64,000 nt of DNA, taken from IMG/VR virus record IMGVR_UViG_2868238732_000001, positions 48,913 to 112,912 of that record; one strand, 5' to 3'. A program made the translations under genes and the position numbers. This document shows positions 1 to 61,383 of the stretch, one piece after another. The notes beneath the pieces were generated by a model. That model was not told the origin of the DNA, searched no databases, and saw nothing but the letters and a program-made list of their open reading frames with translations. Numbering within the stretch: position 1 is the stretch's first letter; every line of letters starts with the position of its first letter. The stretch is from a virus.

Positions 1-460
1 AATCTCTATTGTGCATTTTTGTAAGTAGACATAGAATAATCCATCCAGTAGGGGAGAGGTGTCTATAATAATCTAAGTATATTGATTGAGGTATTTTTTC
101 AAATCCTCCCTTGAGATTATAGTACAGAGTTAAGTCAATTGTTAATCTATCTTTTTTAACAATAGTAGATAAATCTTTGCTGCATGTTAGTAAGTTGCTC
201 TGTTGAAGTTTTGGTAGATATTTTTTTACTGTAAGTTTACTTATTGAAAGTGTAGATATAATATCTTGAAGATCTATTGTAGTTTTGTGTTCTCCTCTTG
301 ATTTATAAACTAAGTAGGTGAGAATTGAATATCCAATAGTTCCTATAGAATGTATTAGTGAAGTTGTTGGGTCTTTGTTATTTCCAAACAGACCATTTTT
401 CATTTGGATAAAATTCTTACTAATTATTGGAATGGATGAAGCAGGTGAATCATTAAACAT
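1..460 (-). CDS. 5' part of a gene truncated by the window edge; possible winged-helix replication initiator
   Basis: RBS GAAAGGAG then ATG at 460, with the frame open to position 1 (MFNDSPASSIPIISKNFIQMKNGLFGNNK...GGFEKIPQSIYLDYYRHLSPTGWIILCLLTKMHNRD). It lies next to the large non-coding region. The function is inferred. Confidence 0.5.
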   Translation of the reverse strand, partial: MFNDSPASSIPIISKNFIQMKNGLFGNNKDPTTSLIHSIGTIGYSILTYLVYKSRGEHKTTIDLQDIISTLSISKLTVKKYLPKLQQSNLLTCSKDLSTIVKKDRLTIDLTLYYNLKGGFEKIPQSIYLDYYRHLSPTGWIILCLLTKMHNRD

Positions 461-1669
461 TACTTTCTCCTTTCTGAAAATAAAAATAATTTAAAGTTGA
501 TTTTTACAAAAACATCTCCTTGCGTAATGTTATTGTTTAATTGTTATATTTATAGTATATATAATTCTTACTCAAATGACAACCTTTTTATTCAATTTCT
601 AAATAAATTTATTGATAATAGGAATTGCTTAATTTTTAGAGGTACTGTTATAGGCAGTAGATATTAATAATTTTCAATGTTTAATAACCCCTCCCATGTG
701 GACATTGTTTTGATTGTCTGTAGTAACCAGAGAGGGCGTTTAGGGCTAAGGATTAATATTTGCTAGTGTGAAAATTACAGTTGCTTGTAGGAACTATTAG
801 ACAAGGAGAAATATAATATAGTGTTTTAGGTGTTTTTGAGATTGTATGAGTATTGCAGAGTATTAGGTTAGATTGGATGAAAAGTGATAATAAGTGTATG
901 AGAATGATTGAATATAGATAAGATCAGTTGATAGTTATTTGTTAAGCTTATAGAAATAGTGTAGCTTAATTTTATAGCTGAGTAGGGGATAGTATAGAGG
1001 AAAAGTTTTCAGATAGATTAGTACCCCGGGGAGTATGTTTTTGATAGTGTAATAGAGTCATAGAGATGTTGTTTGGTGTTTTATGTGTAATTAGTGAGGA
1101 ATAGAGTAAAGTGGTTCACGACCGTTACGGGACGATGTGAAAATATTACGGGAAGTGAAACCGGCTAAAGTGAGTTTTTAGGTAAAATATGAGGTAAAAT
1201 AGAAATGTCCCGTGTGAAGTGTTGATTTGTGTAGGGTTGCCCGTGATTATTTTTAAGGAGGAAAGTCGATTTTTTGACTGAGTGCTGGAGTGAAACAGGG
1301 GGCCAAATTCCGAGGAGGCTATGAAAAGGTTGAAACGTAATATACGCCCCATGCTGCAATCCTTGTAATTTAATCAGCCAATAGTCTCATTTGTCAGGTT
1401 TTTGTGTGTTTTAGTGATATTTTGAAGGTACTGCAAGTCGTTGATACGTCTATATTTGAAGGTTATTGAATAAAAACATGCTATTAAATGTATATTTAGT
1501 TGTATGTTTACAGGAAATAGGGTATATTTGTATCATATAGTTATCATAACTAGGTGTAGATTTATTTTTGATGTTTTGAAGTGGATATATTCAGTTTACT
1601 AGTGTATTAGTTTAATAGTACACTAGCGAACTATAAAAGACTGTTTTTACAGATTTGAACTACCTAAAT

Positions 1670-1713
1670 AAACACGAACAATAAACTAATTTAAATAAAT
1701 AACGTTCGTGTTT
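1670..1713. repeat. Inverted repeat AAACACGAAC-N24-GTTCGTGTTT
   Basis: Read directly from the sequence: 10-bp arms with a 24-bp spacer. Confidence 0.9.
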
Positions 1714-1806
1714 TACATTTTCCATAAATTACACTCCTTTGTAAACAAAATAATACTACACAGGTTTACAATATAATAATCAGGAACACCATGTTACTAA
1801 TAATAA

Positions 1807-1848
1807 AACACGAACAATGACAAGTAATACACTATTAATGTTCGTGTT
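1807..1848. repeat. Second copy, AACACGAAC-N24-GTTCGTGTT
   Basis: Same arms and same 24-bp spacing as 1670-1713, with a different spacer sequence. Confidence 0.9.
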
Positions 1849-2628
1849 ATCAAATGCAGTAACAACTATATAATCATTCGACAAACAAATAATCTCAATA
1901 TCTCACATAACCATTATAAACATACATAATCAAATCTATTACACTCTCAAAACTCATTTAAACGCTCTATAAACCACTTTACAATTAAACAGTACTGTTA
2001 TACCTAATTTCTCCTAACGTTCCATTCTACTTTATTCGACAAAACATACTAACTATAATACACCCAACATGTATTTTATATCCTTAGTATCTTTTATATA
2101 CTATGAAATTGATCCTACATACCTATAACAACTATAAATATAACAAACACCCAACAATAACTAATAACCCAATATAATATATTAACCTGTTATTTACCTT
2201 GATTCTATTCCTATTAATGGACTATATTTATAGCTATTACTTAGCTAACACTATTATATAATGTAACAAAATAGCATAACCATATCTATTAGCATACTGG
2301 AGTAAACAGGACTACACACAATGACTAATATATAACTACTATTATAATATCTACACTAATAAATCCTAATATCTAAAATATCACACCATCTCACGTTCAT
2401 TCTAACGCATTGTAACCATGTAACCCTAATACTATTACCTAACAAACATAACATGGCTCTCTATTGCTTCATTTTAGCCATAATAACCCTTAACCCTGTT
2501 ACGCTAACTAACTAATAAACAATAACATTAACAATGAAACAATAATGAAATACATAGGAAATAGTAGCAAATCAAAGTATTAACACTTTAATCTATTCTA
2601 ACAACCTTATACAACCTTAAATAACATA

Positions 2629-10371: not shown

Positions 10372-10863
10372 ATGGGGAAAACACGTAAAGGCAAAGATAT
10401 AACAGATAAAGTTTTTGAAAGACTTACAGCAATAGAGCCTACAGAAATTCGGAAGGATGCAAATATTGTATGGAAATGCAAGTGCAAATGTGGAAATGAG
10501 ACTTTCGCCACTATGCGTGATTTGAAAGATGGAAGGGTTAGAAGTTGTGGCTGTATAGCCACGGAACTTGCAAAAGAGAATGCTATAAAAAACATGGCAA
10601 AATTTAAAAAGAATAATTGTATAGCAGGGACAAGGCTTGATATTGTTAAGGGGAGTATGCCGAGAAGGAAAAATGCTACTGGCTACAAAGGCGTTTATCG
10701 CAAATACGATAGATATGTTGCTAGCATTATGTTCCAGGGCATACGATACTCTTTAGGTCATTATGATAAAGTTGAGGATGCTGCTAAGGCACGAAAAATA
10801 GCTGAAGAAAAATTATATGGGGATTTTCTTGAATGGTATGAGTCAGAATATAAAAATAAATAG
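10372..10863 (+). CDS. AP2-domain protein with N-terminal WxCxCxCG...SCGC zinc module (related to HNH-AP2 endonucleases)
   Basis: FERLTAI...WKCKCKCGN...SCGC followed by TGYKGV...Y.ASI...YSLGHY...EDAAKARK.AE. No HNH motif is visible. Confidence 0.8.
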   Translation: MGKTRKGKDITDKVFERLTAIEPTEIRKDANIVWKCKCKCGNETFATMRDLKDGRVRSCGCIATELAKENAIKNMAKFKKNNCIAGTRLDIVKGSMPRRKNATGYKGVYRKYDRYVASIMFQGIRYSLGHYDKVEDAAKARKIAEEKLYGDFLEWYESEYKNK

Positions 10864-10982: not shown

Positions 10983-11195
10983 ATGAATATTGAGCAGCAG
11001 AAAGAAAAAATAGAAAGCTTATGTGACACGTTAAAGACTTCAATGCTGAATAACTTGGAACAGTTTCCTGAGAGCTGGCAAGACTTAGAGTTTAGGCAGT
11101 ATATGAATGACAAGGCGCAACAATTTAACCCTGTTAGGATGACTAGGACTAGAATGAGAGTCTATAAAGACTATGTAGAGATACATAAATTATAG
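10983..11195 (+). CDS. Hypothetical protein
   Basis: GGAGGTG RBS. Confidence 0.8.
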   Translation: MNIEQQKEKIESLCDTLKTSMLNNLEQFPESWQDLEFRQYMNDKAQQFNPVRMTRTRMRVYKDYVEIHKL

Positions 11196-11217: not shown

Positions 11218-11246
11218 TTGACAATAGAATAATAATGATATAGAAT
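11218..11246 (+). promoter_or_regulatory. sigmaA promoter of the MazF-TPR locus
   Basis: TTGACA-17bp-TAGAAT, with a variant of the recurrent motif in the spacer. Confidence 0.65.
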
Positions 11247-11437: not shown

Positions 11438-11617
11438 ATGAGCACAAAAGGAGCTAGAACACCAGGGGTAAAGGATTGCACACTAAACATTATTATAAGT
11501 GGACTTATGTTTCATAAGGAGGCAATAAAGAGAGAACAGGATGCAGAGAAAAGAGAATTTCATAAAAAAAGACTTAACGAGTTAAAGCTTGAATTAGAAA
11601 ATCATAAAGCAGCCTAG
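11438..11617 (+). CDS. Small basic helical protein (59 aa) upstream of the MazF-TPR gene
   Basis: AGGGGGA RBS followed by ATG; MSTKGARTPGVKDCTLNIIISGLMFHKEAIKREQDAEKREFHKKRLNELKLELENHKAA. Confidence 0.7.
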   Translation: MSTKGARTPGVKDCTLNIIISGLMFHKEAIKREQDAEKREFHKKRLNELKLELENHKAA

Positions 11618-11702: not shown

Positions 11703-12641
11703 GTGGAAAAAGTTATAGTTAGAAGGTCTGATATTTTTGAGGTTCAATTAAAAGGTGAAGGGAATCTCCTTCATGGAAAACATCCGGTTCTAGTTTTAAG
11801 TTGCCAAGTGTCAAATAAATTTAGTGACTTGATAAATGTAGTTCCATTAACTTCCACCACTAATAAAGACAACCCATCAAACGTATTAATAGGAACAGAA
11901 TGTGGATTAAAATGGGAATCCGCGATACTTACTAACCAAGTACAAACAATTTCAAAAAGTAATATTTTATTCAAAATAGGATTTGTAAACCTACAAAAAA
12001 TGCAGGAGGTTGAAAGAGTGTTAATGAATCAACTAGGAATTAAGAATAATTGGGGAGACTTGAAACTATATCAGATTTACGAGAAGAATAGAATGGAAAT
12101 CAGAATGGCCAAGTGTCAAGAAGATTACGAATTGTTGAGACAGTTATCAGAAAAATATTTAAAAAACTTATATGAAATGGGCCGCGTAATACAGGGTACA
12201 GAAATACATGCAGAACTAGAGTGGGCAAATTTTCATCTAGCACTAGCATTAAAGAAAAATGGTCAAATTTATGAAGCTTATGATGTAGCTAAAAAATCGT
12301 TAACTTTTAGTACAACAATAAATAGTGAGTATATTTATACCTGCTGGATGGTTGGAAGCTTGTGCATAGAGTTGGGTGATGATTTTGTGTTAGAAGGATG
12401 CGAGATGTTTGAAAAGTGCATTACATTTTATGATCAGATTAAAGAGGAAAGATATAAAATATTATCTCAGTTCAATAAAGCAAAAATACTAAAGAGGGTT
12501 CCTGAGATGCAAGCATGTATTAAAAGTTATAAAGATACTAGATTTAAACCGATGCTTTGTAGTTTTTCAGATATGGAAAAAAGTGAAGTCATCTTAGAAC
12601 TTCAAAAAGAATTAGACGACATCAAAAAATTAGTAGCCTAA
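11703..12641 (+). CDS. PemK/MazF-like domain fused to a TPR (RRNPP-like peptide receptor) domain
   Basis: Residues ~5-113 follow the PemK pattern (RSDIFEVQL...HPVLVLS...N.FS..INVVPLTS...S.IL.NQVQTISK...KIG.V...M..VE..L...LG). The C-terminal ~190 aa are amphipathic TPR-like helices (ANFHLALALKKNGQIYEAYDVAKKSL; CWMVGSLCIELG...GCEMFEKCI). Confidence 0.8.
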   Translation: MEKVIVRRSDIFEVQLKGEGNLLHGKHPVLVLSCQVSNKFSDLINVVPLTSTTNKDNPSNVLIGTECGLKWESAILTNQVQTISKSNILFKIGFVNLQKMQEVERVLMNQLGIKNNWGDLKLYQIYEKNRMEIRMAKCQEDYELLRQLSEKYLKNLYEMGRVIQGTEIHAELEWANFHLALALKKNGQIYEAYDVAKKSLTFSTTINSEYIYTCWMVGSLCIELGDDFVLEGCEMFEKCITFYDQIKEERYKILSQFNKAKILKRVPEMQACIKSYKDTRFKPMLCSFSDMEKSEVILELQKELDDIKKLVA

Positions 12642-12700
12642 TAAATAGCATGGGAGCGTTAAACTCTCCCATAGAATATTTATTAGGAGGTCTTCAAAAG

Positions 12701-12844
12701 ATGAAGATTACAAAAAGAATTGCAGCAGTAGGGTTAGGCATAGTTATAATGGGAGGTTTATTTGCTAGTAGCACTAAACTAATAACACAAAAAATAAACG
12801 TGCCGACAATAAATGTCGCTACAATCGACCCACCAACTCATTAA
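12701..12844 (+). CDS. Secreted signalling propeptide (47 aa; Phr/AimP/Qsp-like), predicted mature end ...TIDPPTH
   Basis: AGGAGG RBS. Basic N-terminus MKITKR, hydrophobic core IAAVGLGIVIMGGLFA, and a short C-terminus ending in DPPTH. It lies immediately downstream of a TPR protein. Confidence 0.8.
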   Translation: MKITKRIAAVGLGIVIMGGLFASSTKLITQKINVPTINVATIDPPTH

Positions 12845-12868
12845 AGAAGGGGATAATCCCCTTCTTTT
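12843..12868 (+). terminator. Intrinsic terminator closing the receptor-peptide unit
   Basis: AAAGAAGGGG-ATAAT-CCCCTTCTTTT. Confidence 0.9.
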
Positions 12869-12898
12869 CTAAAAAAGAATCATAACTATAAAATAAAT

Positions 12899-12948
12899 TT
12901 GACAAATAAATACTTCCAGTAGTATAATAATTTTAGAACATATGTTCG
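12899..12948 (+). promoter_or_regulatory. sigmaA promoter with a LexA (SOS/Cheo) box at the transcription start
   Basis: TTGACA(12899)-18bp-TATAAT(12923), then GAAC-ATAT-GTTC at 12936-12947. Confidence 0.75.
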
Positions 12949-12976: not shown

Positions 12977-13198
12977 ATGACAAAAGTTTACATGTTAAGC
13001 TACGAAACAATGTGCTTAGATTTATTAAATAATAATGTTAAAGAAGAAGATATTGAAGAATTTGTAGAAGAAATTTTAGGAGAACTAAGATTAATCAACA
13101 TAATTGAGAATGATGATAGTTATGTTGTTGGAAATTTAACAGCATTTTTATTAAAAGAAAAATTCGGAATAGAATGTACTGAGATACAATTAATATAA
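12977..13198 (+). CDS. Small acidic protein, probably SOS-induced
   Basis: GAGGTG RBS; first gene after the LexA-boxed promoter. Confidence 0.75.
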   Translation: MTKVYMLSYETMCLDLLNNNVKEEDIEEFVEEILGELRLINIIENDDSYVVGNLTAFLLKEKFGIECTEIQLI

Positions 13199-13207
13199 AA
13201 GGAAGGA

Positions 13208-13549
13208 ATGGTAATAATGATATTAATAGAAGAAATGAATAAAATAGAAATAGAGAATTTATGTTTCAAACATGGCTTCTCTTGGGATAAGATTGGAGAA
13301 TATATTAGAATACAAAGTAAGAGAGACACATGGTATATAAAGGATATAAACCACGATGGAAGACTAATAGAGCTAGAGCATCAAAACAAATATAGAGATG
13401 CAAGGTTTCATTCACAAGGCAAGCATGAGAATTTAAAGAATATCTTTAAATCTATAGAAAGCCATGACCATAGAGAGGAATTAGGGCACAGAAATAATAA
13501 ACTGACTAGAATAACTAATACATTCAAACTACTTGGCTTATACAATTAA
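13208..13549 (+). CDS. Hypothetical protein
   Basis: ORF with AAGGAAGG RBS. Confidence 0.75.
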   Translation: MVIMILIEEMNKIEIENLCFKHGFSWDKIGEYIRIQSKRDTWYIKDINHDGRLIELEHQNKYRDARFHSQGKHENLKNIFKSIESHDHREELGHRNNKLTRITNTFKLLGLYN

Positions 13550-13641
13550 AGGATAATATGTCGAAAGAATAATTAAACAATAATGTATAAGAAAATTAAA
13601 AGAAGTATATAATAATAATATAATCTTAGGAGGAAGTATCT

Positions 13642-13806
13642 ATGGAGAACCATCCAATAATGTTTTTTTTCTTGATAGTAATTTGGGGTCTATATGCTGT
13701 ATATTACGCAATAAAGACAGTAGTTGTATTGTTAATAGGACTTTACAAATGGTCAGTTAAAAAGATAAAAGAAAGGAAGGTAAATAGTAATGTTGTTGAT
13801 AGATGA
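13642..13806 (+). CDS. Small membrane protein (54 aa, not in the ORF track)
   Basis: AGGAGG RBS; MENHPIMFFFLIVIWGLYAVYYAIKTVVVLLIGLYKWSVKKIKERKVNSNVVDR. Confidence 0.65.
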   Translation: MENHPIMFFFLIVIWGLYAVYYAIKTVVVLLIGLYKWSVKKIKERKVNSNVVDR

Positions 13807-14686
13807 ATATAAGGACTATTTACATGGAGTAGAAGGAAAGTCTGCTGGGACAGTCGAACAGTATTACAGTAGTGTGCATTTGTTTATGCAGTATATGAAA
13901 AAGAGTGAATTCTCTATAACTAGGCAAAGTATAATTAAAGTTAAATTATCTAACATATATGGCTTCATAAATAGTCTAACTGAAAGCAACTCAAATGGGA
14001 CTCGAAGAAACAAAATATCAGCATTGAAATCATTCTTTGAATACTGCAAGGAGATTGAATTGTTAAAGCATAACATTATTGTTGACTTAAAAAAACAACC
14101 TAAGAAAAACAAAAGGATTGCAAAATACTTTACATTAGAAGAATGCAAGAGACTAGTTAACTCAGTAGGTGGAAGGAACAAAGAAAGAGATAAGATGATG
14201 ATAATATTATTTCTTAATACTGGAATAAGATTAGCTGAATTAGTCAGCCTGAACATTTCATGTATCGATAATGAAAACTTGAATATTGTAGGGAAAGGAA
14301 ATAAAGAACGTGTAATACATTTAGATTCATCAATTATAGACTTATTGAAAGAATATATTAAGACGACAAGAGCTGATTCAGGAATAGAAGTAGATGCATT
14401 GTTCTTATCTGAACGTTTGACTAGGGTATCAAGCGATTCAGTACAATCGGCGGTTAATAAAGCAATAGCCAATGCAGGATTGAATACAGAAGGCAAGAAC
14501 GACGTGTCCGTTCATGTACTTAGACATACTTTTGCTACACTTCAATTTCAGAATGGTGTCAGTATAAGAACTCTTCAAAAAATACTTGGGCATGAAGATA
14601 TTTCAACGACTCAAATCTATGTTCAAGTTGCAGATAATCAGATGATTGAAGCAGCAAAAACCAATCCGCTAAAATCTATATATTAA
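13790..14686 (+). CDS. Tyrosine recombinase, XerC/XerD-like, with intact catalytic residues
   Basis: TGIRLAEL (R), GKGNKER (K), HVLRHTFAT (HxxR), LGHED (H), TTQIY (Y). Confidence 0.92.
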   Translation: MLLIDEYKDYLHGVEGKSAGTVEQYYSSVHLFMQYMKKSEFSITRQSIIKVKLSNIYGFINSLTESNSNGTRRNKISALKSFFEYCKEIELLKHNIIVDLKKQPKKNKRIAKYFTLEECKRLVNSVGGRNKERDKMMIILFLNTGIRLAELVSLNISCIDNENLNIVGKGNKERVIHLDSSIIDLLKEYIKTTRADSGIEVDALFLSERLTRVSSDSVQSAVNKAIANAGLNTEGKNDVSVHVLRHTFATLQFQNGVSIRTLQKILGHEDISTTQIYVQVADNQMIEAAKTNPLKSIY

Positions 14687-14719
14687 ATAATAACGTCGAA
14701 CGAATTATATTCGATTCAG

Positions 14720-14748
14720 TTGACAATAAGATAATAATAATATAAAAT
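14720..14748 (+). promoter_or_regulatory. sigmaA promoter upstream of 14774 and the MrpR-like gene
   Basis: TTGACA-17bp-TAAAAT, with a variant of the recurrent motif in the spacer. Confidence 0.6.
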
Positions 14749-14773
14749 TAAATAAACGAGGGGTGGATATATA

Positions 14774-15340
14774 ATGGAAACAAACATAGAATTATTAAAA
14801 GATTTAATCGAGATAAGCGATCTTGTTCCACAAGAAAAATTGAACACGATAGTCCAAACATTATTGAAGACAGACGATATTATAAAAGCTAGAATGTTAA
14901 GTGAGAAGATTATATCTGGAGACTTTAGTAGTTTGAAGGAAAGTGCAATCGAAAATCTTGTTGACGCATTCTCAAAATTGAACGCAAAAGGAACAGATAA
15001 GATAGAGATAACAGAAGATGAAGATGAAGATGAAGGAAAAGATAATAAGACTCAAAATTTAGAATATGAATTGAGATCGTTGAAACTAAAGATGGAATCT
15101 ATAGAACATAATTCTGAAAAGCGATTGAAAGAATTAGAGAAAAAAAACAAAGAGTTAGAAGAAAAGAATAGTAAATTAATATCTATACTTGAACTAACGA
15201 AGAATTCGGAATTGATTGAAGTTTCTGATGAAGATATAAACGAATTATATATAAAGCATTTAGAAAGCGGAGAGACTACACACAACAATGCATTTATTTT
15301 GAATGATACAATTCCAAAAGCATATTATAAAGTAAAATAG
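14774..15340 (+). CDS. Hypothetical acidic coiled-coil protein
   Basis: ORF with RBS and a heptad-like K/E-rich segment. Confidence 0.8.
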   Translation: METNIELLKDLIEISDLVPQEKLNTIVQTLLKTDDIIKARMLSEKIISGDFSSLKESAIENLVDAFSKLNAKGTDKIEITEDEDEDEGKDNKTQNLEYELRSLKLKMESIEHNSEKRLKELEKKNKELEEKNSKLISILELTKNSELIEVSDEDINELYIKHLESGETTHNNAFILNDTIPKAYYKVK

Positions 15341-15358
15341 TATTGGAGGATGTAAATA

Positions 15359-16288
15359 ATGTTAACACAAGAATACTCAGAGAAATTTTTAGATGAACAT
15401 GATAAAGAAGGCAATAAAGGTCAGATAATAAAAAATATAATTGAAACAGAAATAGAAACAAAAATAGAATTATTAGATTGGGAAGATGCTGAGATTGCTA
15501 CATTCCTAAAAAAAGCAGGTTCTGTATCTCCACAAGGTTTAAATAAGAGCATGGTTATATTAAGAAAATTCGCTGACTTCATATGTAAAAAGAAAAAACT
15601 TGCGATACGTGAGTATATAATGGAAGATGGAGTTCTTCTTTCTTTAATAGACAAAGAGCAACTACTAACAACAACTATTAATTACGACCAATATCTGACG
15701 ATAAGATCTCAACTAGATATGACAGAAGGTGGAATGAAAGTTAATCTTAGGGATAAAGTAATCTTTGAATTAGCCTGGGAAGGGCTACTGAACGACGAAA
15801 TAAGAGCAATTAAGGAAGGAAATATAGAATTTGTTCAATCAGAAAATGGATGGGAGATTGCAATAATAAATTTAGAAAATAAAGTTTTTAGAATCGAAGA
15901 TCCGTCAGTTGCAGAAGATATTAAATTGTGTTTAAAAGAACTATCTTGTATCAGAACAACAAAGGATGGAAGGACTAAAAAAACTCTTTATAAAGATTCA
16001 GAATATCTAATCAAACCAGTTAATGTTGGAAGAGTGTCCGACAAAACTTATTTAAATAATCCTCATTTAGCTTTGCAACGTGCTCTAAGAGCTAGCGATA
16101 TTCTTTGTAAGGGGATAAATGTAAAAGACTTAACTTTAGCAGACATCAGAAGGAGTAGATTGATATACTTACTAGCTCCAGAGAATGAAGAGTTCTTTAA
16201 TTTTGAAACTGTAGCAGCAATATACAATTTGAAGAGACCAGAGGCTCTGAGATGGTATAAGAAAATCGCAGAAGAGAAATACGAATAG
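15359..16288 (+). CDS. MrpR/YopR-like master repressor (degenerate tyrosine-recombinase fold)
   Basis: Blocks resembling SPbeta YopR as I recall it: EKFLD, E..IELLDW, INYDQY, RDKVIFELAWEGL, DSEYLIK, LTLADIRRSRLIY. The canonical catalytic R and HxxR/LGH motifs are not retained. Confidence 0.7.
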   Translation: MLTQEYSEKFLDEHDKEGNKGQIIKNIIETEIETKIELLDWEDAEIATFLKKAGSVSPQGLNKSMVILRKFADFICKKKKLAIREYIMEDGVLLSLIDKEQLLTTTINYDQYLTIRSQLDMTEGGMKVNLRDKVIFELAWEGLLNDEIRAIKEGNIEFVQSENGWEIAIINLENKVFRIEDPSVAEDIKLCLKELSCIRTTKDGRTKKTLYKDSEYLIKPVNVGRVSDKTYLNNPHLALQRALRASDILCKGINVKDLTLADIRRSRLIYLLAPENEEFFNFETVAAIYNLKRPEALRWYKKIAEEKYE

Positions 16289-16411: not shown

Positions 16412-17020
16412 ATGTCAACAATACAAGATGAACTTTATGGAGTAAAAAAAGGATATATTGATACAAAGGTAGACGGAGCTCAAGAAAAAATATCACAACA
16501 ACTATATAAATTAATTACAGAATCAAAGAAAGATTATAATGAAATAGTTTTAATATGTATAGGAACTGACAGAAGTGCAGGAGATTGTTTTGCTCCAATG
16601 CTAGGTACATTTTTATCTGAGAGAGAGGAATTAAAAGGAAAATGTAAAATATATGGGAGTCTCCAAAACCCAGTTCATGCTAAAAATTTAGAAGATACTT
16701 TAAATACAATTGATGCTAAAAATTCATTGATAATAGCGATTGATGCATGTTTAGGTAGTACTGGTAATTTGCAAAAGATATGTATAGCAAACGGAACACT
16801 TACTCCAGGGGCAGCTTTTAATAAAGAATTACCTTCCATTGGGGATATTTCAATTGCAGGTATAGTTAATATATCTGGCGCATTTGAGTTTATGGTTCTA
16901 CAAAACACAAGAATCGGAATAGTTTATGAAATGGTTAGAAATTTAGAAGTTGGAATAATATCTGCAATAAATAAGCTAAGCGTAAGAAAAATGATCATTA
17001 ACGACAAGGTTGCAGTATAG
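16412..17020 (+). CDS. yyaC: Spore protease YyaC family (GPR-like, DUF1256)
   Basis: ICIGTDRSAGDC..PMLG, GSLQNPVHAKNL, IAIDACLG, PGAAFNKELPSIGDISIAGIVN, LQNTR. Confidence 0.88.
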   Translation: MSTIQDELYGVKKGYIDTKVDGAQEKISQQLYKLITESKKDYNEIVLICIGTDRSAGDCFAPMLGTFLSEREELKGKCKIYGSLQNPVHAKNLEDTLNTIDAKNSLIIAIDACLGSTGNLQKICIANGTLTPGAAFNKELPSIGDISIAGIVNISGAFEFMVLQNTRIGIVYEMVRNLEVGIISAINKLSVRKMIINDKVAV

Positions 17021-50161: not shown

Positions 50162-51622
50162 ATGTCAGAAGATATTAATATACAGGACATTAGTACAGAG
50201 TCTCTTGCAATCGGAATGATATTAAACGATCCCAATATACTGCTTGGATATTTAGATTTAATAAATCCAGTACATGACTTTTCAGATGAAAATTTAAGGT
50301 TTCTATATAATCAAGTAATTGGGACTTATTTAAACCATGATGTTATTAGTGAGACGTCTGTAAATATTGAAATTTCAAAGTTAGAAGATGATCAACAGAC
50401 ACTATATAAGAAATTGGGTGGATACAAAAGCCTTCAAAGATTAGCACAAGTTGCAACGATAAATCAAGACTTTAAGAAAATCTATGGAAAGTTAAAAACT
50501 TTTAATGTTTTGAGAGAACTTCAACTAAAAGGATTTAAAATGACAGAGGAAATCTATGAAAAACTTAAAGATAAATCCGTTGAGTTTATTCTTAGAGCAT
50601 ATGAACTTCAATTAACAAAAGTAGGAACCCATATTGGAGGAGTAAACGATTCTGTTCGATTAGGGGATGGAATAGTAGATTTCTATGAAAAACTGAAACT
50701 TGAGCCAGATATAGGAATAGAAATACCTTTCAGTGGTCTTAATTATCTAACAAGGGGTATTAGAAAACGTACAGTTAATTCTTATCTTATGCTTTCAGGT
50801 CAAGGCAAGAGTAGGTTGATGGTTAGGATACTTGTTCATACATCAATTATTGGAAACACAAAGTTTCTAGTCTTAGTAAATGAAGAAAATTTGTCAGATT
50901 GGCAATTAAAAATCCTTACCTGTGTAGCAAATGTAGTCTTCTCAGATAAATATGGAGGATTAATAGTTGAAGAAAACGAGATAGCAAGAGGATTAACTGG
51001 TATGAAAGATGCTATGGTCAAAGAGGCTGCCGAATATATTCAATTGAACTCAAAGATTAGATTCTTTGAAACTCAAATATATGACTATGAGACTATAAGA
51101 ATGACCTTTAGACAGCATAGATTAAGGTATGGAATTGAGCATTACATTATAGATACTATGAAAGCCTATAGAGGGAAAGGAACAGAAGGTATGGCAGAGT
51201 ATGCAATGTATGCTTACACCATAGAACGATTTAAGGCCTTAGCTAAGGAGCTAGATATAAGTATCACTCTAACTCAGCAGTTGTTGGATACAGTCCAGGA
51301 GACTAAGAAAATGGACTCGACTCAAATTTCAGGCAGCAAAAGTACGAAGCATTCGATGGACACTATGGTTATGTACAGAAAATTAGATTATGCTGACAAG
51401 AAAAAAATTAAGGTGAAGATACAAATGGACGGTAATCCGTTTAATGGACAAGTACAGGATTTAGAAAAAGATGGAGTATATTATTTATGTTTCCTCGAGA
51501 AAAATCGGGCGGGATTAGACAAAGTGAATCTGATACTCAAAGTGAATGTTGGAGCGATTTTGTTCCAAGAGATAGGAACAGCCGTTTTTTCAAGTGGTAA
51601 AAAGAAAGTAGAAGAGGAGTGA
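50162..51622 (+). CDS. dnaB: DnaB-like replicative helicase
   Basis: Walker A LSGQGKS, Walker B YIIDTMK, TQQL, EKNRAG. Confidence 0.88.
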   Translation: MSEDINIQDISTESLAIGMILNDPNILLGYLDLINPVHDFSDENLRFLYNQVIGTYLNHDVISETSVNIEISKLEDDQQTLYKKLGGYKSLQRLAQVATINQDFKKIYGKLKTFNVLRELQLKGFKMTEEIYEKLKDKSVEFILRAYELQLTKVGTHIGGVNDSVRLGDGIVDFYEKLKLEPDIGIEIPFSGLNYLTRGIRKRTVNSYLMLSGQGKSRLMVRILVHTSIIGNTKFLVLVNEENLSDWQLKILTCVANVVFSDKYGGLIVEENEIARGLTGMKDAMVKEAAEYIQLNSKIRFFETQIYDYETIRMTFRQHRLRYGIEHYIIDTMKAYRGKGTEGMAEYAMYAYTIERFKALAKELDISITLTQQLLDTVQETKKMDSTQISGSKSTKHSMDTMVMYRKLDYADKKKIKVKIQMDGNPFNGQVQDLEKDGVYYLCFLEKNRAGLDKVNLILKVNVGAILFQEIGTAVFSSGKKKVEEE

Positions 51623-59081: not shown

Positions 59082-59103
59082 TAATAACAATATGGAGGTA
59101 TTT

Positions 59104-61383
59104 ATGCAAGTAAAAGAATGGTTAGATACACAATTAGGTCAAGATATTTGGAACAACAAATACAGATATGATAATGAAAGTTTTGAAGGATGGTTAGATA
59201 GAGTTTCTAATGGGAATCAAGAATTAAGACAACTAATTGTAGATAAGAAATTCCTCTTCGGTGGAAGAACGCTAACTAATTATAATACAAATAAACCAGG
59301 TGCTTCTACAAGTAATTGCTACTCAAGTGGATATGCTCCAGATAGCCTAGAGGGTCTGCTAGAGCTCAATAAAAATATAGGATTGACATATAAAGTACAA
59401 GGTGGTCAGGGATTATCATTATCTAAGATAAGGCCAAAAGGATCTAAATTATCAACTTCTTATGAGACTGATGGAATTGTACCATTTATGACAATCTTTA
59501 ATACTACTACAGCAAGTGTATCCCAAGGTGGTTCAAGGAAAGGTGCATTGATGATGTCATTAGATGCATGGCATAAAGAAGCTCCTACATTTATAAGAAT
59601 TAAAAGCCAAACAGGAGCTATCGAAAAAGCAAACTTATCATTAGAATTTGATGATGAATTCATGGAATATGTTAAAAAAGATTATGAAAGCGGCAAAGAA
59701 ACTATTGTCAATAGAACATTCAAATATGAGACTGGCAGTATAGATTATGTAGTCGTGCCAATTAAATTATATAAGGAGTTTTGTGGAATAGCTCATGAAT
59801 GGGCAGAACCTGGGGCTATCTATACAAAGAGATTCAGAAATTATAACCTAATGGAATTTGATAATGAGTACATGGTAATTACTGGTAACCCATGTGGAGA
59901 ACAACCGTTGCCCAAAGATGGGGCATGTAACCTTGGGTCAATTAATTTATCTGAATTTGTTCTTAACCCATATACGGTAGATGCAGGATTTGATTGGTTA
60001 AACTTTAGTAAAGCGGTAAAAGCATCTATTAAATCACTTGATGATGTTATAGATTATGGATATCAATATCATGCATTGCAGTCTCAGAAAGATATGGCTT
60101 TTAATTATAGGAATATAGGGTTAGGTGTAATGGGATTAGGTTCAATGTTCTTTAAGTTAAGATTGGTCTATGGGAGTTTAGATTCTATAACATTAATTGA
60201 TAAAATTATACAAGTTATGTTCAGAACATCAGTATTTACTTCAAATAAATTAGCAAGAGAGAAAGGAACCTTCCCTAAATATAAAGATGTAGTTTTTGAT
60301 TCTGAAATTATTAAAAATCATTTTACAAAAGAAGAGATTGAGTATTTGAGAGTTGACGGATTAAGAAATTGCAGCCTACTAAGTGTAGCCCCATCAGGAA
60401 GTATAGCAACAATGTTGAATGTAACTACGGGAGTAGAACCAGCATTTAGAATTTCTTATAAAAGAAAAACTGAATCTCTCCATAAGAATACAGATGTATA
60501 TTACGATGTCTGTATCAAAGAAGCAGATGAATATAAAAAGCTATTTAATACCGATGATTTGCCTTCTTATTTCGTATCATCAGAGAGTGTAAATTATGTA
60601 GATAGAATAGAAATACAATCAGTAATTCAAAATCATATAGACACAGCGATATCCTCAACAGTAAATGTTCCTAATGAATTTACAGTAGACGATGTAGAAA
60701 AATTATATATATTAGCATGGGAGAAAGGACTAAAGGGAGTTACTATTTATAGAGATGGCTGTTTAAGAGGTGGAATCCTTACTACTGGCGATACTACAGA
60801 AACTACTATTGAATTGCCAAGAGGAGCTTGGAAGCCGAAAGCAGCAGATACATTCTATTATGAAAGAAAACTGACTATCGGTTGTGGAAAGCTAAAATTA
60901 TTTATAGGTTGGTCTGATACAGAGAAAGAGATACAAGATTTATATGTTATAAGAAGTGGACAAGGTGGTTGTGAAAAGAATATACAGACTTCTGTGATAG
61001 CTATGTCTGGCATGTTAAGACTTGGTGGGAAGTTATGTAATATTGATAAGGCCTTTGAGGGACTAGGCGGATGTAATAGTTTCGTAGCTCAGAGAGCAAA
61101 AGGAGAAAAACTTAGTAGAGGAGCCAGTTGCGGGACAGCTATATTAAATGAAATAAAATTATTCCAATCTGAAATAGAAAAGGTTGAAGTTGAAGTTTCT
61201 CTTCCAAAAACTACAATAGAGAGTATATCTTCAAAATCAGCAGAAGAAATATTATATTTGCAAAAGAATGGAGAAATTGCTTATGCCAAACATTTTAATA
61301 AATGTCCAGTATGTGATTCAGAATTAGAAAATAGTGGTGGATGTGTGATTTGTAAAGATTGCGGTTTTTCAAAATGCGACTAA
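59104..61383 (+). CDS. nrdJ: Class II (B12-dependent) ribonucleotide reductase
   Basis: FGGR, SNCY, GGQG, TGNPCGEQPL, CNLGSINL, VAPSGSI, GLKGVTIYRDG, and a C-terminal CPVC...CKDCGFSKC. No NrdB/F partner nearby. Confidence 0.92.
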   Translation: MQVKEWLDTQLGQDIWNNKYRYDNESFEGWLDRVSNGNQELRQLIVDKKFLFGGRTLTNYNTNKPGASTSNCYSSGYAPDSLEGLLELNKNIGLTYKVQGGQGLSLSKIRPKGSKLSTSYETDGIVPFMTIFNTTTASVSQGGSRKGALMMSLDAWHKEAPTFIRIKSQTGAIEKANLSLEFDDEFMEYVKKDYESGKETIVNRTFKYETGSIDYVVVPIKLYKEFCGIAHEWAEPGAIYTKRFRNYNLMEFDNEYMVITGNPCGEQPLPKDGACNLGSINLSEFVLNPYTVDAGFDWLNFSKAVKASIKSLDDVIDYGYQYHALQSQKDMAFNYRNIGLGVMGLGSMFFKLRLVYGSLDSITLIDKIIQVMFRTSVFTSNKLAREKGTFPKYKDVVFDSEIIKNHFTKEEIEYLRVDGLRNCSLLSVAPSGSIATMLNVTTGVEPAFRISYKRKTESLHKNTDVYYDVCIKEADEYKKLFNTDDLPSYFVSSESVNYVDRIEIQSVIQNHIDTAISSTVNVPNEFTVDDVEKLYILAWEKGLKGVTIYRDGCLRGGILTTGDTTETTIELPRGAWKPKAADTFYYERKLTIGCGKLKLFIGWSDTEKEIQDLYVIRSGQGGCEKNIQTSVIAMSGMLRLGGKLCNIDKAFEGLGGCNSFVAQRAKGEKLSRGASCGTAILNEIKLFQSEIEKVEVEVSLPKTTIESISSKSAEEILYLQKNGEIAYAKHFNKCPVCDSELENSGGCVICKDCGFSKCD

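Follow-up and report, generated by a model that had tools for sequence, protein, structure and literature searches.

A MazF-fold protein joined to a TPR domain and followed by a predicted secreted peptide: a candidate peptide-communication cassette in a Clostridium provirus

A MazF-TPR gene, an RNA hairpin and a propeptide gene

The stretch of DNA analysed here (the window, 64,000 nucleotides) corresponds to positions 48,913-112,912 of a 126,022-bp provirus record. On its plus strand it carries a compact cassette composed of a gene for a protein that joins a MazF-fold domain to a tetratricopeptide repeat (TPR) domain, an RNA hairpin and a gene for a small predicted secreted peptide (Table 1). 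The first gene, hereafter the receptor gene (11703-12641), starts with a GTG codon preceded by an AGGTGG ribosome-binding site (RBS) and encodes a protein of 312 amino acids (P0001).

The N-terminal part of the receptor is a MazF-type domain. Residues 7-110 match the Pfam family PemK_toxin (PF02452) with an E value of 8.9e-18 and 64.9 bits, against a cut-off of 23.1, over profile positions 1-108 of 109. The same domain is matched by PHROG 1936 (MazF-like growth inhibitor, E 6e-21) and by MazF sequences of the PDB (E 1.5e-9). Moreover, when a model of the whole receptor, made with AlphaFold2 (AF2) from 12 homologs (predicted local distance difference test, pLDDT, 81.6), was submitted to Foldseek, the MazF proteins of Bacillus subtilis and Staphylococcus aureus (1ne8, 4mdx and 4mzm) were retrieved with E values of about 3e-8 and template-modelling scores, normalized by target, of 0.82-0.84. 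A first-pass annotation of this DNA had assigned the first ~113 residues of the open reading frame (ORF) to PemK/MazF, and both the Pfam match and the superposition on the MazF fold bear this out.

The established catalytic pair of MazF consists of Arg25 and Thr48 in B. subtilis numbering (PMC7354611), and the receptor carries the Thr but not the Arg. In the alignment to S. aureus MazF, GKHPVLVL of the receptor stands opposite GVRPVVII, which places His27 at the position of the catalytic Arg, and the catalytic Thr is retained as Thr50. Ser73 and Gln79 fall in the segment aligned with DSVILLEQ, the RNA-binding segment of MazF. These four residues (His27, Thr50, Ser73 and Gln79) are invariant among 12 close homologs, and His is also found at the Arg position in all distant and split members that were read. 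The Arg is kept in 10 of 10 chromosomal MazF proteins sampled from Clostridiaceae, where the sequence reads GG[I/V]RPVIII.

The remainder of the receptor has a TPR fold. Modelled alone with AF2, residues 113-312 form nine helices (pLDDT 88.7, predicted template-modelling score 0.84). Comparison of this domain with known structures by VIA-align gave Z scores of 17.4 for Pins, 16.9 for LGN, 15.2 for both PlcR-PapR (2qfc) and RapI (4i1a), 13.4 for the Rap protein of pLS20 and 13.2 for the Rap protein of phage phi105 with its peptide; Foldseek also lists NprR-NprX (4gpk). At the sequence level, TPR matches of the C-terminal domain were sub-threshold only, and a PDB profile search with this domain returned nothing significant. 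Fold searches of AFDB and BFVD retrieved generic TPR proteins only. Seven aromatic or polar residues of the domain (W174, W215, Y243, Y251, N258, K259 and Y276) are invariant in the 12 close homologs; they are plausible contacts for the invariant I-D-P-P core of the peptide described below. As a separate observation, the receptor ends in KKLVA (12627-12638) and a distant fusion, L023, in KISVA, most close fusions ending instead in NIL; a Val-Ala tail recurs in many TPR-only proteins of the split systems (P0025-P0035), where LVA, KVA or VA follows an additional helix at the C-terminus.

Directly 3' of the receptor gene, a second ORF encodes 47 amino acids (MKITKRIAAVGLGIVIMGGLFASSTKLITQKINVPTINVATIDPPTH), with the signal-peptide layout and the IDPPTH end that the first-pass annotation had described. 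A conserved signal, followed by a variable spacer and a conserved unit at the extreme C-terminus, is the layout of propeptides of the Phr/AimP type.

The two genes are separated by a stem-loop, ATGGGAG/CTCCCAT, which is unique in the window (none expected) and, like the terminator that a scan found after the peptide gene, had also been part of that annotation. Fourteen loci, one of them a split system, conserve the hairpin. In all 13 sequences counted its 7-bp stem is fully paired (100%), with compensatory double changes at three pairs, and the closing pair is GU in eight of them, GC in four and AU in one; this pattern points to an element that works as RNA and not to a DNA operator. An outer stem extends, in several loci, as far as the RBS of the peptide gene. 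The hairpin is absent from locus L018 and different in L029 and L030, and Rfam holds no family for it or for the leader. We also considered that it might be a dispersed target of the MazF domain. This was rejected: a covariance model found one copy of the hairpin in the 126-kb provirus and one in each related locus, which makes it a cis element of the operon. The hairpin may serve in attenuation, in processing or stability of the transcript, in control of peptide translation or in autoregulation by the MazF-like domain.

Table 1. Features of the cassette and of its flanks, in window coordinates
Feature	Position	Strand	Evidence
70-aa ORF, conserved upstream neighbour	10983..11195	+	70-aa homolog at the same relative position in distant locus L037; no Pfam match
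Promoter-like TTGACA-17-TAGAAT, likely start of the cassette transcript	11218..11246	+	11/12 consensus positions; consensus match only
59-aa Lys/Glu-rich ORF directly upstream of the receptor, helical as predicted from composition	11438..11617	+	Homologs
MazF/PemK-fold domain (receptor residues 1-113)	11703..12041	+	Pfam, PHROG, PDB sequence, Foldseek
His27 codon at the MazF catalytic Arg position (Arg25, B. subtilis numbering)	11781..11783	+	Alignment to S. aureus MazF
TPR domain (receptor residues 118-312, nine helices), putative peptide sensor	12054..12638	+	AF2 model, structure matches
RNA hairpin between receptor stop and peptide RBS	12650..12672 (stem 12650-12656 / 12666-12672, loop CGUUAAACU)	+	Covariation
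AGGAGG RBS of the peptide gene	12685..12690	+	Sequence; conserved in alignment A5
47-aa propeptide gene: N-terminal MKITKR, hydrophobic core, variable spacer, IDPPTH end	12701..12844	+	Sequence, homologs
Codons of IDPPTH, predicted mature hexapeptide	12824..12841	+	Motif conservation; processing predicted
Intrinsic terminator after the peptide gene	12845..12871	+	GC-rich stem and T-run in scan; RNAfold -15.7 kcal/mol
Promoter TTGACA-18-TATAAT, then LexA-type box GAACATATGTTC (12936-12947)	12899..12947	+	12/12 promoter positions
Six-ORF block (73, 113, 54, 298, 188 and 309 aa) downstream of the LexA-type box	12977..16288	+	Synteny, domain matches

Distribution of the cassette and pairing of receptor and peptide

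Relatives of the whole receptor are rare. Only 12 were found in a collection of 5.8 billion sequences (39-66% identity), one of them from Clostridium sp. FP1, and the IMG/VR viral contigs on which relatives were located measure 34-126 kb. When 1.8 billion cluster representatives were searched with a profile built on the TPR domain, 61 proteins were retrieved: MazF-TPR fusions that are more distant, and many proteins with the TPR part alone (TPR-only, 180-230 amino acids). Both TPR-only proteins for which the context was retrieved are encoded directly 3' of a MazF-like gene (187-195 amino acids) and directly 5' of a motif-bearing signal ORF. In these split systems (L019-L021 and L029) the order is thus MazF gene, overlapping or abutting TPR gene and peptide gene. 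The fusion claimed by the first-pass annotation is genuine and recurs in relatives; the split forms, like the Arg-to-His change throughout the family and the covariation of the hairpin, go beyond that annotation. The existence of split forms shows that the MazF-TPR partnership is maintained by selection.

Among 393 Clostridiaceae species genomes scored, five contain full-length fusions of the distant clade. One genome (G282) has three of them (C5:132090-133016, C1:321402-322334 and C18:82626-83555), of which the first, L035, is the only one that was read; these copies may represent several prophages with different pherotypes in one host. A megablast search of the locus against phage records gave no match, and when 50,697 phage records were searched with the receptor by tblastn, only its MazF part was matched. 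A contig scan of genomes with alignment A2 and viral scans with P0027, P0055 and P0032 retrieved nothing, and no system-level match was obtained with PADLOC and NCBIfam. The small size and rarity of the family may explain why surveys missed MazF-TPR cassettes. Some long fusions (P0014, P0021, P0024 and L023) contain a helical insertion of ~58-75 residues (…KLDYMLKSIKK…IKYNI.D.EID…) between the MazF and TPR domains. The same module forms the C-terminal tail of the MazF product in split systems L019 and L029, and it may be an interface or linker module between effector and sensor.

The association with the peptide gene is general. In all 12 loci of close homologs, the receptor is followed by an ORF of 47-51 amino acids that shares this layout and ends in [I/V]DPPxx. 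With further loci (L018, L019, L023, L025, L029, L030 and L034-L037), a small signal-bearing ORF is found directly 3' of the receptor in 22 of 22 distinct related loci, fused or split; the linkage of homologs to a downstream secreted-type peptide, on which the interpretation had been staked beforehand, thus holds throughout. The ORF keeps its RBS, signal layout and motif down to ~27-35% receptor identity, in fused and split forms. The first 18 peptides tabulated have two to six Lys or Arg and no acidic residue among their first ten positions, together with a hydrophobic 15-mer (Kyte-Doolittle value above 2), and in 15 of these 18 loci the motif is exactly C-terminal. A D[P/S]P core, mostly as [I/V]DPPxx, is present in 20 of the 22 loci. 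Four loci, from two separate lineages, carry three tandem copies of the motif: in L007, L008 and L014 these are 9-residue units, and in L037 three DPPM units are separated by spacers of unequal length.

The residues that follow the core vary. Peptides end in IDPPTH in the window and L013, IDPPGH in L002, IDPPTY in L003, VDPPAH in L006, IDPPIN in L009, IDPPGY in L010, L011 and L012, and IDPPVR in the triplicated L007, L008 and L014. Those of the split systems read ...RANIDPPGGSPILGYII (L019-L021) and ...MLVDPPGS (L029, on a 122-kb IMG/VR contig), and those of the distant fusions ...SIDPPIVFLQQQ (L030), ...CIDPPGN (L023), ...RVDPPMP (L035) and ...TDSPIV... (L036).

The last two peptide residues track receptor clades: in the 14 receptors compared, identity of the TPR domain is 75-98% within clades that share a peptide and 37-64% between clades with different peptides (MazF domain, 38-85%). 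Both Tyr-ending lineages (L003, and L010-L012) have K158 and N143, all other receptors having E158. L003 is nearest to the His-ending receptors, and since K158 and N143 are common to two lineages that are only 47-51% identical in the TPR segment, the alignment suggests convergence at specificity positions. E170 is restricted to the Arg-ending clade.

Genomic surroundings of the cassette

The 59-amino-acid ORF located directly upstream of the receptor is itself conserved, with 46-71% identity in seven loci (alignment A6) and a counterpart of 63 amino acids in the distant fusion locus L037. It has no Pfam, PHROG or PADLOC match, and it is a possible fourth component, as a regulator or an antitoxin-like protein.

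Downstream, the terminator of the peptide gene is directly followed by a promoter and a LexA-type box, the single GAAC-N4-GTTC box of the 64-kb window. The same type of box lies 3' of the peptide gene in L003, L012, L013 and L023. Within the six-ORF block that this promoter would drive, the 298-amino-acid product (13790-14686) is a tyrosine recombinase (Phage_integrase, E 7.6e-37) of generic XerC/D type, with no specific relation to SPbeta. The last product, of 309 amino acids (15359-16288), was assigned to the MrpR/YopR family from ESM Atlas features, the nearest clusters being MrpR (YopR) at 0.97-0.99 with MrpR domains in 35 of 100 hits, and from a sub-threshold match to Pfam MrpR_N_CB (E 0.048). 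For this protein, tblastn against phage records found no match and a PDB profile search found nothing. The six-ORF block is syntenic in L003, L009 and L016, with syntenic homologs of the 309-amino-acid protein in L003 and L009, and in L010 such a homolog directly adjoins the peptide gene. The smaller prophages L002, L006 and L019 have the cassette behind a divergent HTH_26 gene, in the vicinity of the integrase.

A MazF-like gene is also present in Clostridium phage c-st (L026, AP008983.1 22935-26030). CST027 encodes a MazF-like protein of 220 amino acids, with the catalytic Arg kept and a C-terminal helical extension, and lies two genes upstream of an annotated homolog of SPbeta YopQ; no TPR or peptide gene accompanies it. 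On this evidence, a MazF-like gene may belong to the switch region of large clostridial phages as an older resident. CST028 was considered as the TPR partner of CST027 and rejected, as it is not TPR-like and is followed by no peptide ORF. The helical extension of CST027 resembles the insertion of the long MazF-TPR fusions.

Other genes were noted nearby. A 202-amino-acid ORF directly after the MrpR-like gene (16412-17020) matches DUF1256 (E 1.2e-50). Upstream of the cassette, a 163-amino-acid ORF (10372-10863) has a weak AP2-domain match (E 0.003) and may encode a DNA-binding or HNH-associated protein. In L008, a product encoded near the cassette (1-73, minus strand) matches Pfam ADPrib_exo_Tox, and in the L006 prophage a RES-domain gene (1569-2483, minus strand) lies next to a helix-turn-helix (HTH) repressor gene. 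Nearly all window ORFs of at least 100 amino acids are on the plus strand, and the right half of the window forms a block devoted to replication and nucleotide metabolism, with a DnaB-like helicase (50162-51622, PHROG 19, E 1e-39) and the large subunit of ribonucleotide reductase (59092-61383, PHROG 84, E 9e-111).

A proposed mechanism, its alternatives and known systems

On balance, we consider it somewhat likely that the locus is a peptide-communication cassette, in which a sensor gates a MazF-fold effector and feeds the adjacent lysis-lysogeny/induction switch. Its first part would be a receptor-effector of the cytoplasm, in which a ribonuclease-type domain of MazF fold, with His for Arg, is joined to a TPR sensor; its second, the conserved RNA hairpin between the receptor and peptide genes; and its third, a Sec-type propeptide whose C-terminal hexapeptide, IDPPTH, would be released outside the cell. 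IDPPTH would build up there as infected or lysogenic cells become more numerous and, once taken up again, would bind to the TPR domain. Binding would alter the action of the MazF-like domain on RNA, whether cleavage or binding, and phage density would thereby be coupled to the switch located just downstream, with its SOS box, recombinase and MrpR-type repressor. Lysogeny of phage phi3T is favoured by active MazF, which stays active when peptide levels are high (bioRxiv 10.1101/2023.04.27.537455). By analogy, peptide binding might activate or de-repress the MazF-like domain.

We infer this lysis-lysogeny mechanism, a density signal gating a MazF-fold effector, with the backing of comparative evidence. 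Secretion and processing of the propeptide, binding of the peptide to the TPR domain, RNase activity of the His27 domain, the direction of the regulation and the effect on lysogeny are likewise what we infer. In its most specific form, the TPR domain would sense secreted hexapeptides (IDPPxx pherotypes) and exert direct control over a His-variant MazF RNase, fused to it or encoded by the neighbouring gene, so that regulated RNA cleavage would carry out the lysis-lysogeny/induction decision of SPbeta-like, MrpR-repressed Clostridium phages at the post-transcriptional level. The system would then be, in effect, an arbitrium with the MazF step built into the receptor. This form we hold to be possible rather than likely.

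Several observations weigh against a peptide-gated MazF effector. Because the catalytic Arg is replaced, nuclease activity of the His27 domain is uncertain. The TPR domain is short, with ~4 repeats, and generic eukaryotic TPR proteins (Pins, KLC) fit it at least as well as RRNPP receptors do. The first-pass annotation had expected a TPR domain of the PlcR/Rap/AimR type: the fold was found, with PlcR, RapI and NprR among the matches, but generic TPRs match equally well or better and Pfam RNPP_C does not match the domain. A different motif, with tails of the form GGGG..P..G, is found in the peptides of L018 and L034 (Clostridium yunnanense and a relative), and in some distant loci (L019, L030 and L036) the DPP motif is not C-terminal. 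The co-variation of peptide and receptor comprises few independent events among its 14 receptors. Moreover, the window and L003 are ~90% identical at the DNA level in the peptide gene and 56-70% identical in the TPR segment, which is the genome background; a change of the peptide is therefore not by itself what makes the TPR segment diverge.

One alternative keeps the peptide-sensing step and differs in what the effector does. The MazF-like domain could be a non-nuclease mimic that binds host MazE, forms heterodimers with host MazF or binds RNA, for instance the hairpin, without cutting it, and that would adjust host MazEF, or how strongly the peptide gene is translated, to the amount of peptide. 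The replacement of the catalytic Arg in all members, when host MazF proteins keep it, is what such a mimic would predict, but His is a competent general acid/base, and a natural MazF with Lys at this position has been reported, in which mutation of that Lys impaired activity (PMC7354611). Likewise, the invariance of Thr50, Ser73 and Gln79 in the close homologs fits retained catalysis as well as mere binding. A host partner would nearly always be present, since 362 of the 393 Clostridiaceae genomes match the fusion profile (E <= 1e-5), all but five of them with the MazF part only, and the ten sequences read are canonical MazF proteins. There is also a precedent: AimX and YosL of phi3T act on host MazF, the activity of which is needed for lysogeny (bioRxiv 10.1101/2023.04.27.537455). 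The conserved RNA hairpin, in cis and beside the RBS of the peptide gene, would offer a target for binding; however, some loci lack it or have a different one, as described above. We regard a mimic of this kind as unlikely.

A module without any communication seems to us just as unlikely. In such a tripartite toxin-antitoxin or abortive-infection-type system, MazF would be the toxin, the TPR domain an antitoxin acting in cis or in trans or a trigger sensor, and the small ORF a membrane or accessory protein with a non-signalling tail. Indeed, the overlapping or abutting MazF and TPR genes of the split forms resemble toxin-antitoxin operons, NCBI and JGI name the homologs type II toxin-antitoxin PemK/MazF toxins, and the conserved 59-amino-acid ORF directly upstream occupies the classical antitoxin position. 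Prophages, moreover, often carry defence or addiction modules, and the L006 prophage has its RES toxin gene. However, no PADLOC defence model matched, and the cassette consistently occupies the switch region and not a defence island. A propeptide layout with a conserved C-terminal hexapeptide, sometimes triplicated, is hard to explain for a structural membrane protein. In addition, because membrane proteins orient by the positive-inside rule, the tail of the small ORF would face outward, away from the cytoplasmic TPR domain. Last, gene callers missed the small ORF in contigs L013 and L014, as would be expected if a MazF-TPR protein of unrelated function merely preceded a spurious or unrelated ORF, but the recurrence of this ORF (22/22 loci) and of its motif (20/22), conserved with RBS and signal across fused and split forms, excludes chance juxtaposition for all practical purposes.

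To our knowledge, all characterised phage peptide-communication systems (arbitrium and phage Rap-Phr) come from phages of the Bacillus group, and they act via DNA-binding receptors or Rap-type protein binders. The MazF-TPR-peptide cassette is probably a new variant of peptide communication. Full-text literature searches found no paper joining PemK or MazF with a TPR peptide receptor, and three RRNPP surveys (PMC10075063, PMC9765709 and PMC12700828) do not mention MazF or PemK, so that the first-pass annotation, to which no described RRNPP family with a MazF-fold effector was known, agrees with the literature searched. The phi3T finding raised the question of why a toxin RNase lies at the heart of a lysogeny decision. 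If the peptide-gated reading is true, phage communication would extend to clostridia, a ligand-gated MazF would be added to the toxin-antitoxin repertoire, a one-protein system would be at hand for reconstituting peptide control of an RNase, and the natural pherotypes (TH, TY, GH, AH, VR, GY, IN, GN, GS, MP and others) would serve studies of specificity.

The cassette shares several traits with arbitrium (AimR-AimP-AimX) of SPbeta/phi3T-like Bacillus phages: a phage-encoded cytoplasmic sensor of TPR type is followed by the gene of a Sec-type propeptide with a C-terminal hexapeptide signal, the variable positions of the peptide show pherotype-like variation, and immediately 3' of the cassette comes a six-gene block that includes an integrase-like gene and has a repressor of MrpR/YopR type as its last member. 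In SPbeta and phi3T, aimR-aimP is likewise followed by a conserved six-gene operon that contains an integrase-domain gene and ends in the repressor gene yopR (PMC8612738). Both systems are connected to MazF, as arbitrium of phi3T acts through the host enzyme (bioRxiv 10.1101/2023.04.27.537455). In contrast to AimR homologues, which combine HTH and TPR and bind an operator upstream of aimX, the present receptor has no HTH domain, and its effector is a MazF fold on the same polypeptide or in the product of the preceding gene. Its TPR domain of ~200 residues has no detectable sequence similarity to AimR, the TPR region of which is much longer. The peptides have the motif IDPPxx and not xxxxG[G/A], no equivalent of aimX was identified, and the host is Clostridium rather than Bacillus. 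The arbitrium-like interpretation of the first-pass annotation is thus partly supported, by the propeptide linkage, the TPR fold, the clade-wise peptide ends and the aimR-aimP-like position; a kinship of the TPR domain with RRNPP receptors is possible, although generic TPRs match as well or better and RNPP_C does not match.

Rap-Phr systems, including those of phages and plasmids, are similar in that a TPR sensor is coupled to a non-DNA-binding N-terminal effector regulated by an imported oligopeptide, as is predicted here, with the propeptide gene immediately downstream; RapI and the phi105 Rap are, moreover, among the structural matches of the TPR domain. Mature units can be in tandem within one propeptide in both cases, such duplications being documented for RRNPPA propeptides (PMC11343458). 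However, the N-terminal domain is a β-barrel of MazF fold here and a three-helix bundle in Rap, there are fewer TPR repeats, and no Rap or RNPP_C match was obtained at the sequence level. In terms of the RRNPP(A) families, the C-terminal TPR-type domain and the adjacent small gene with signal layout are present, and an N-terminal HTH or Rap-type helical effector is not.

The receptor also belongs with MazEF/PemIK in that its N-terminal domain is a full-length member of Pfam PemK_toxin with a MazF fold, with the catalytic Thr and RNA-groove residues aligned, and in that split versions are organised like a two-gene toxin-antitoxin operon. It differs in having His for the catalytic Arg, which all members share and none of the ten host MazF proteins has, and in its partner: no antitoxin gene of the MazE/PemI type (AbrB or ribbon-helix-helix) lies beside the receptor in the window, and the partner is a TPR domain with a predicted secreted peptide. 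The concept of a short linear quorum peptide that modulates MazF has a parallel in the extracellular death factor (EDF) peptides, which were reported to modulate MazF of E. coli and B. subtilis, a matter of debate. EDF originates from a housekeeping protein, and direct binding to MazF was proposed for it, whereas the present cassette unites its own dedicated propeptide gene and dedicated TPR sensor domain.

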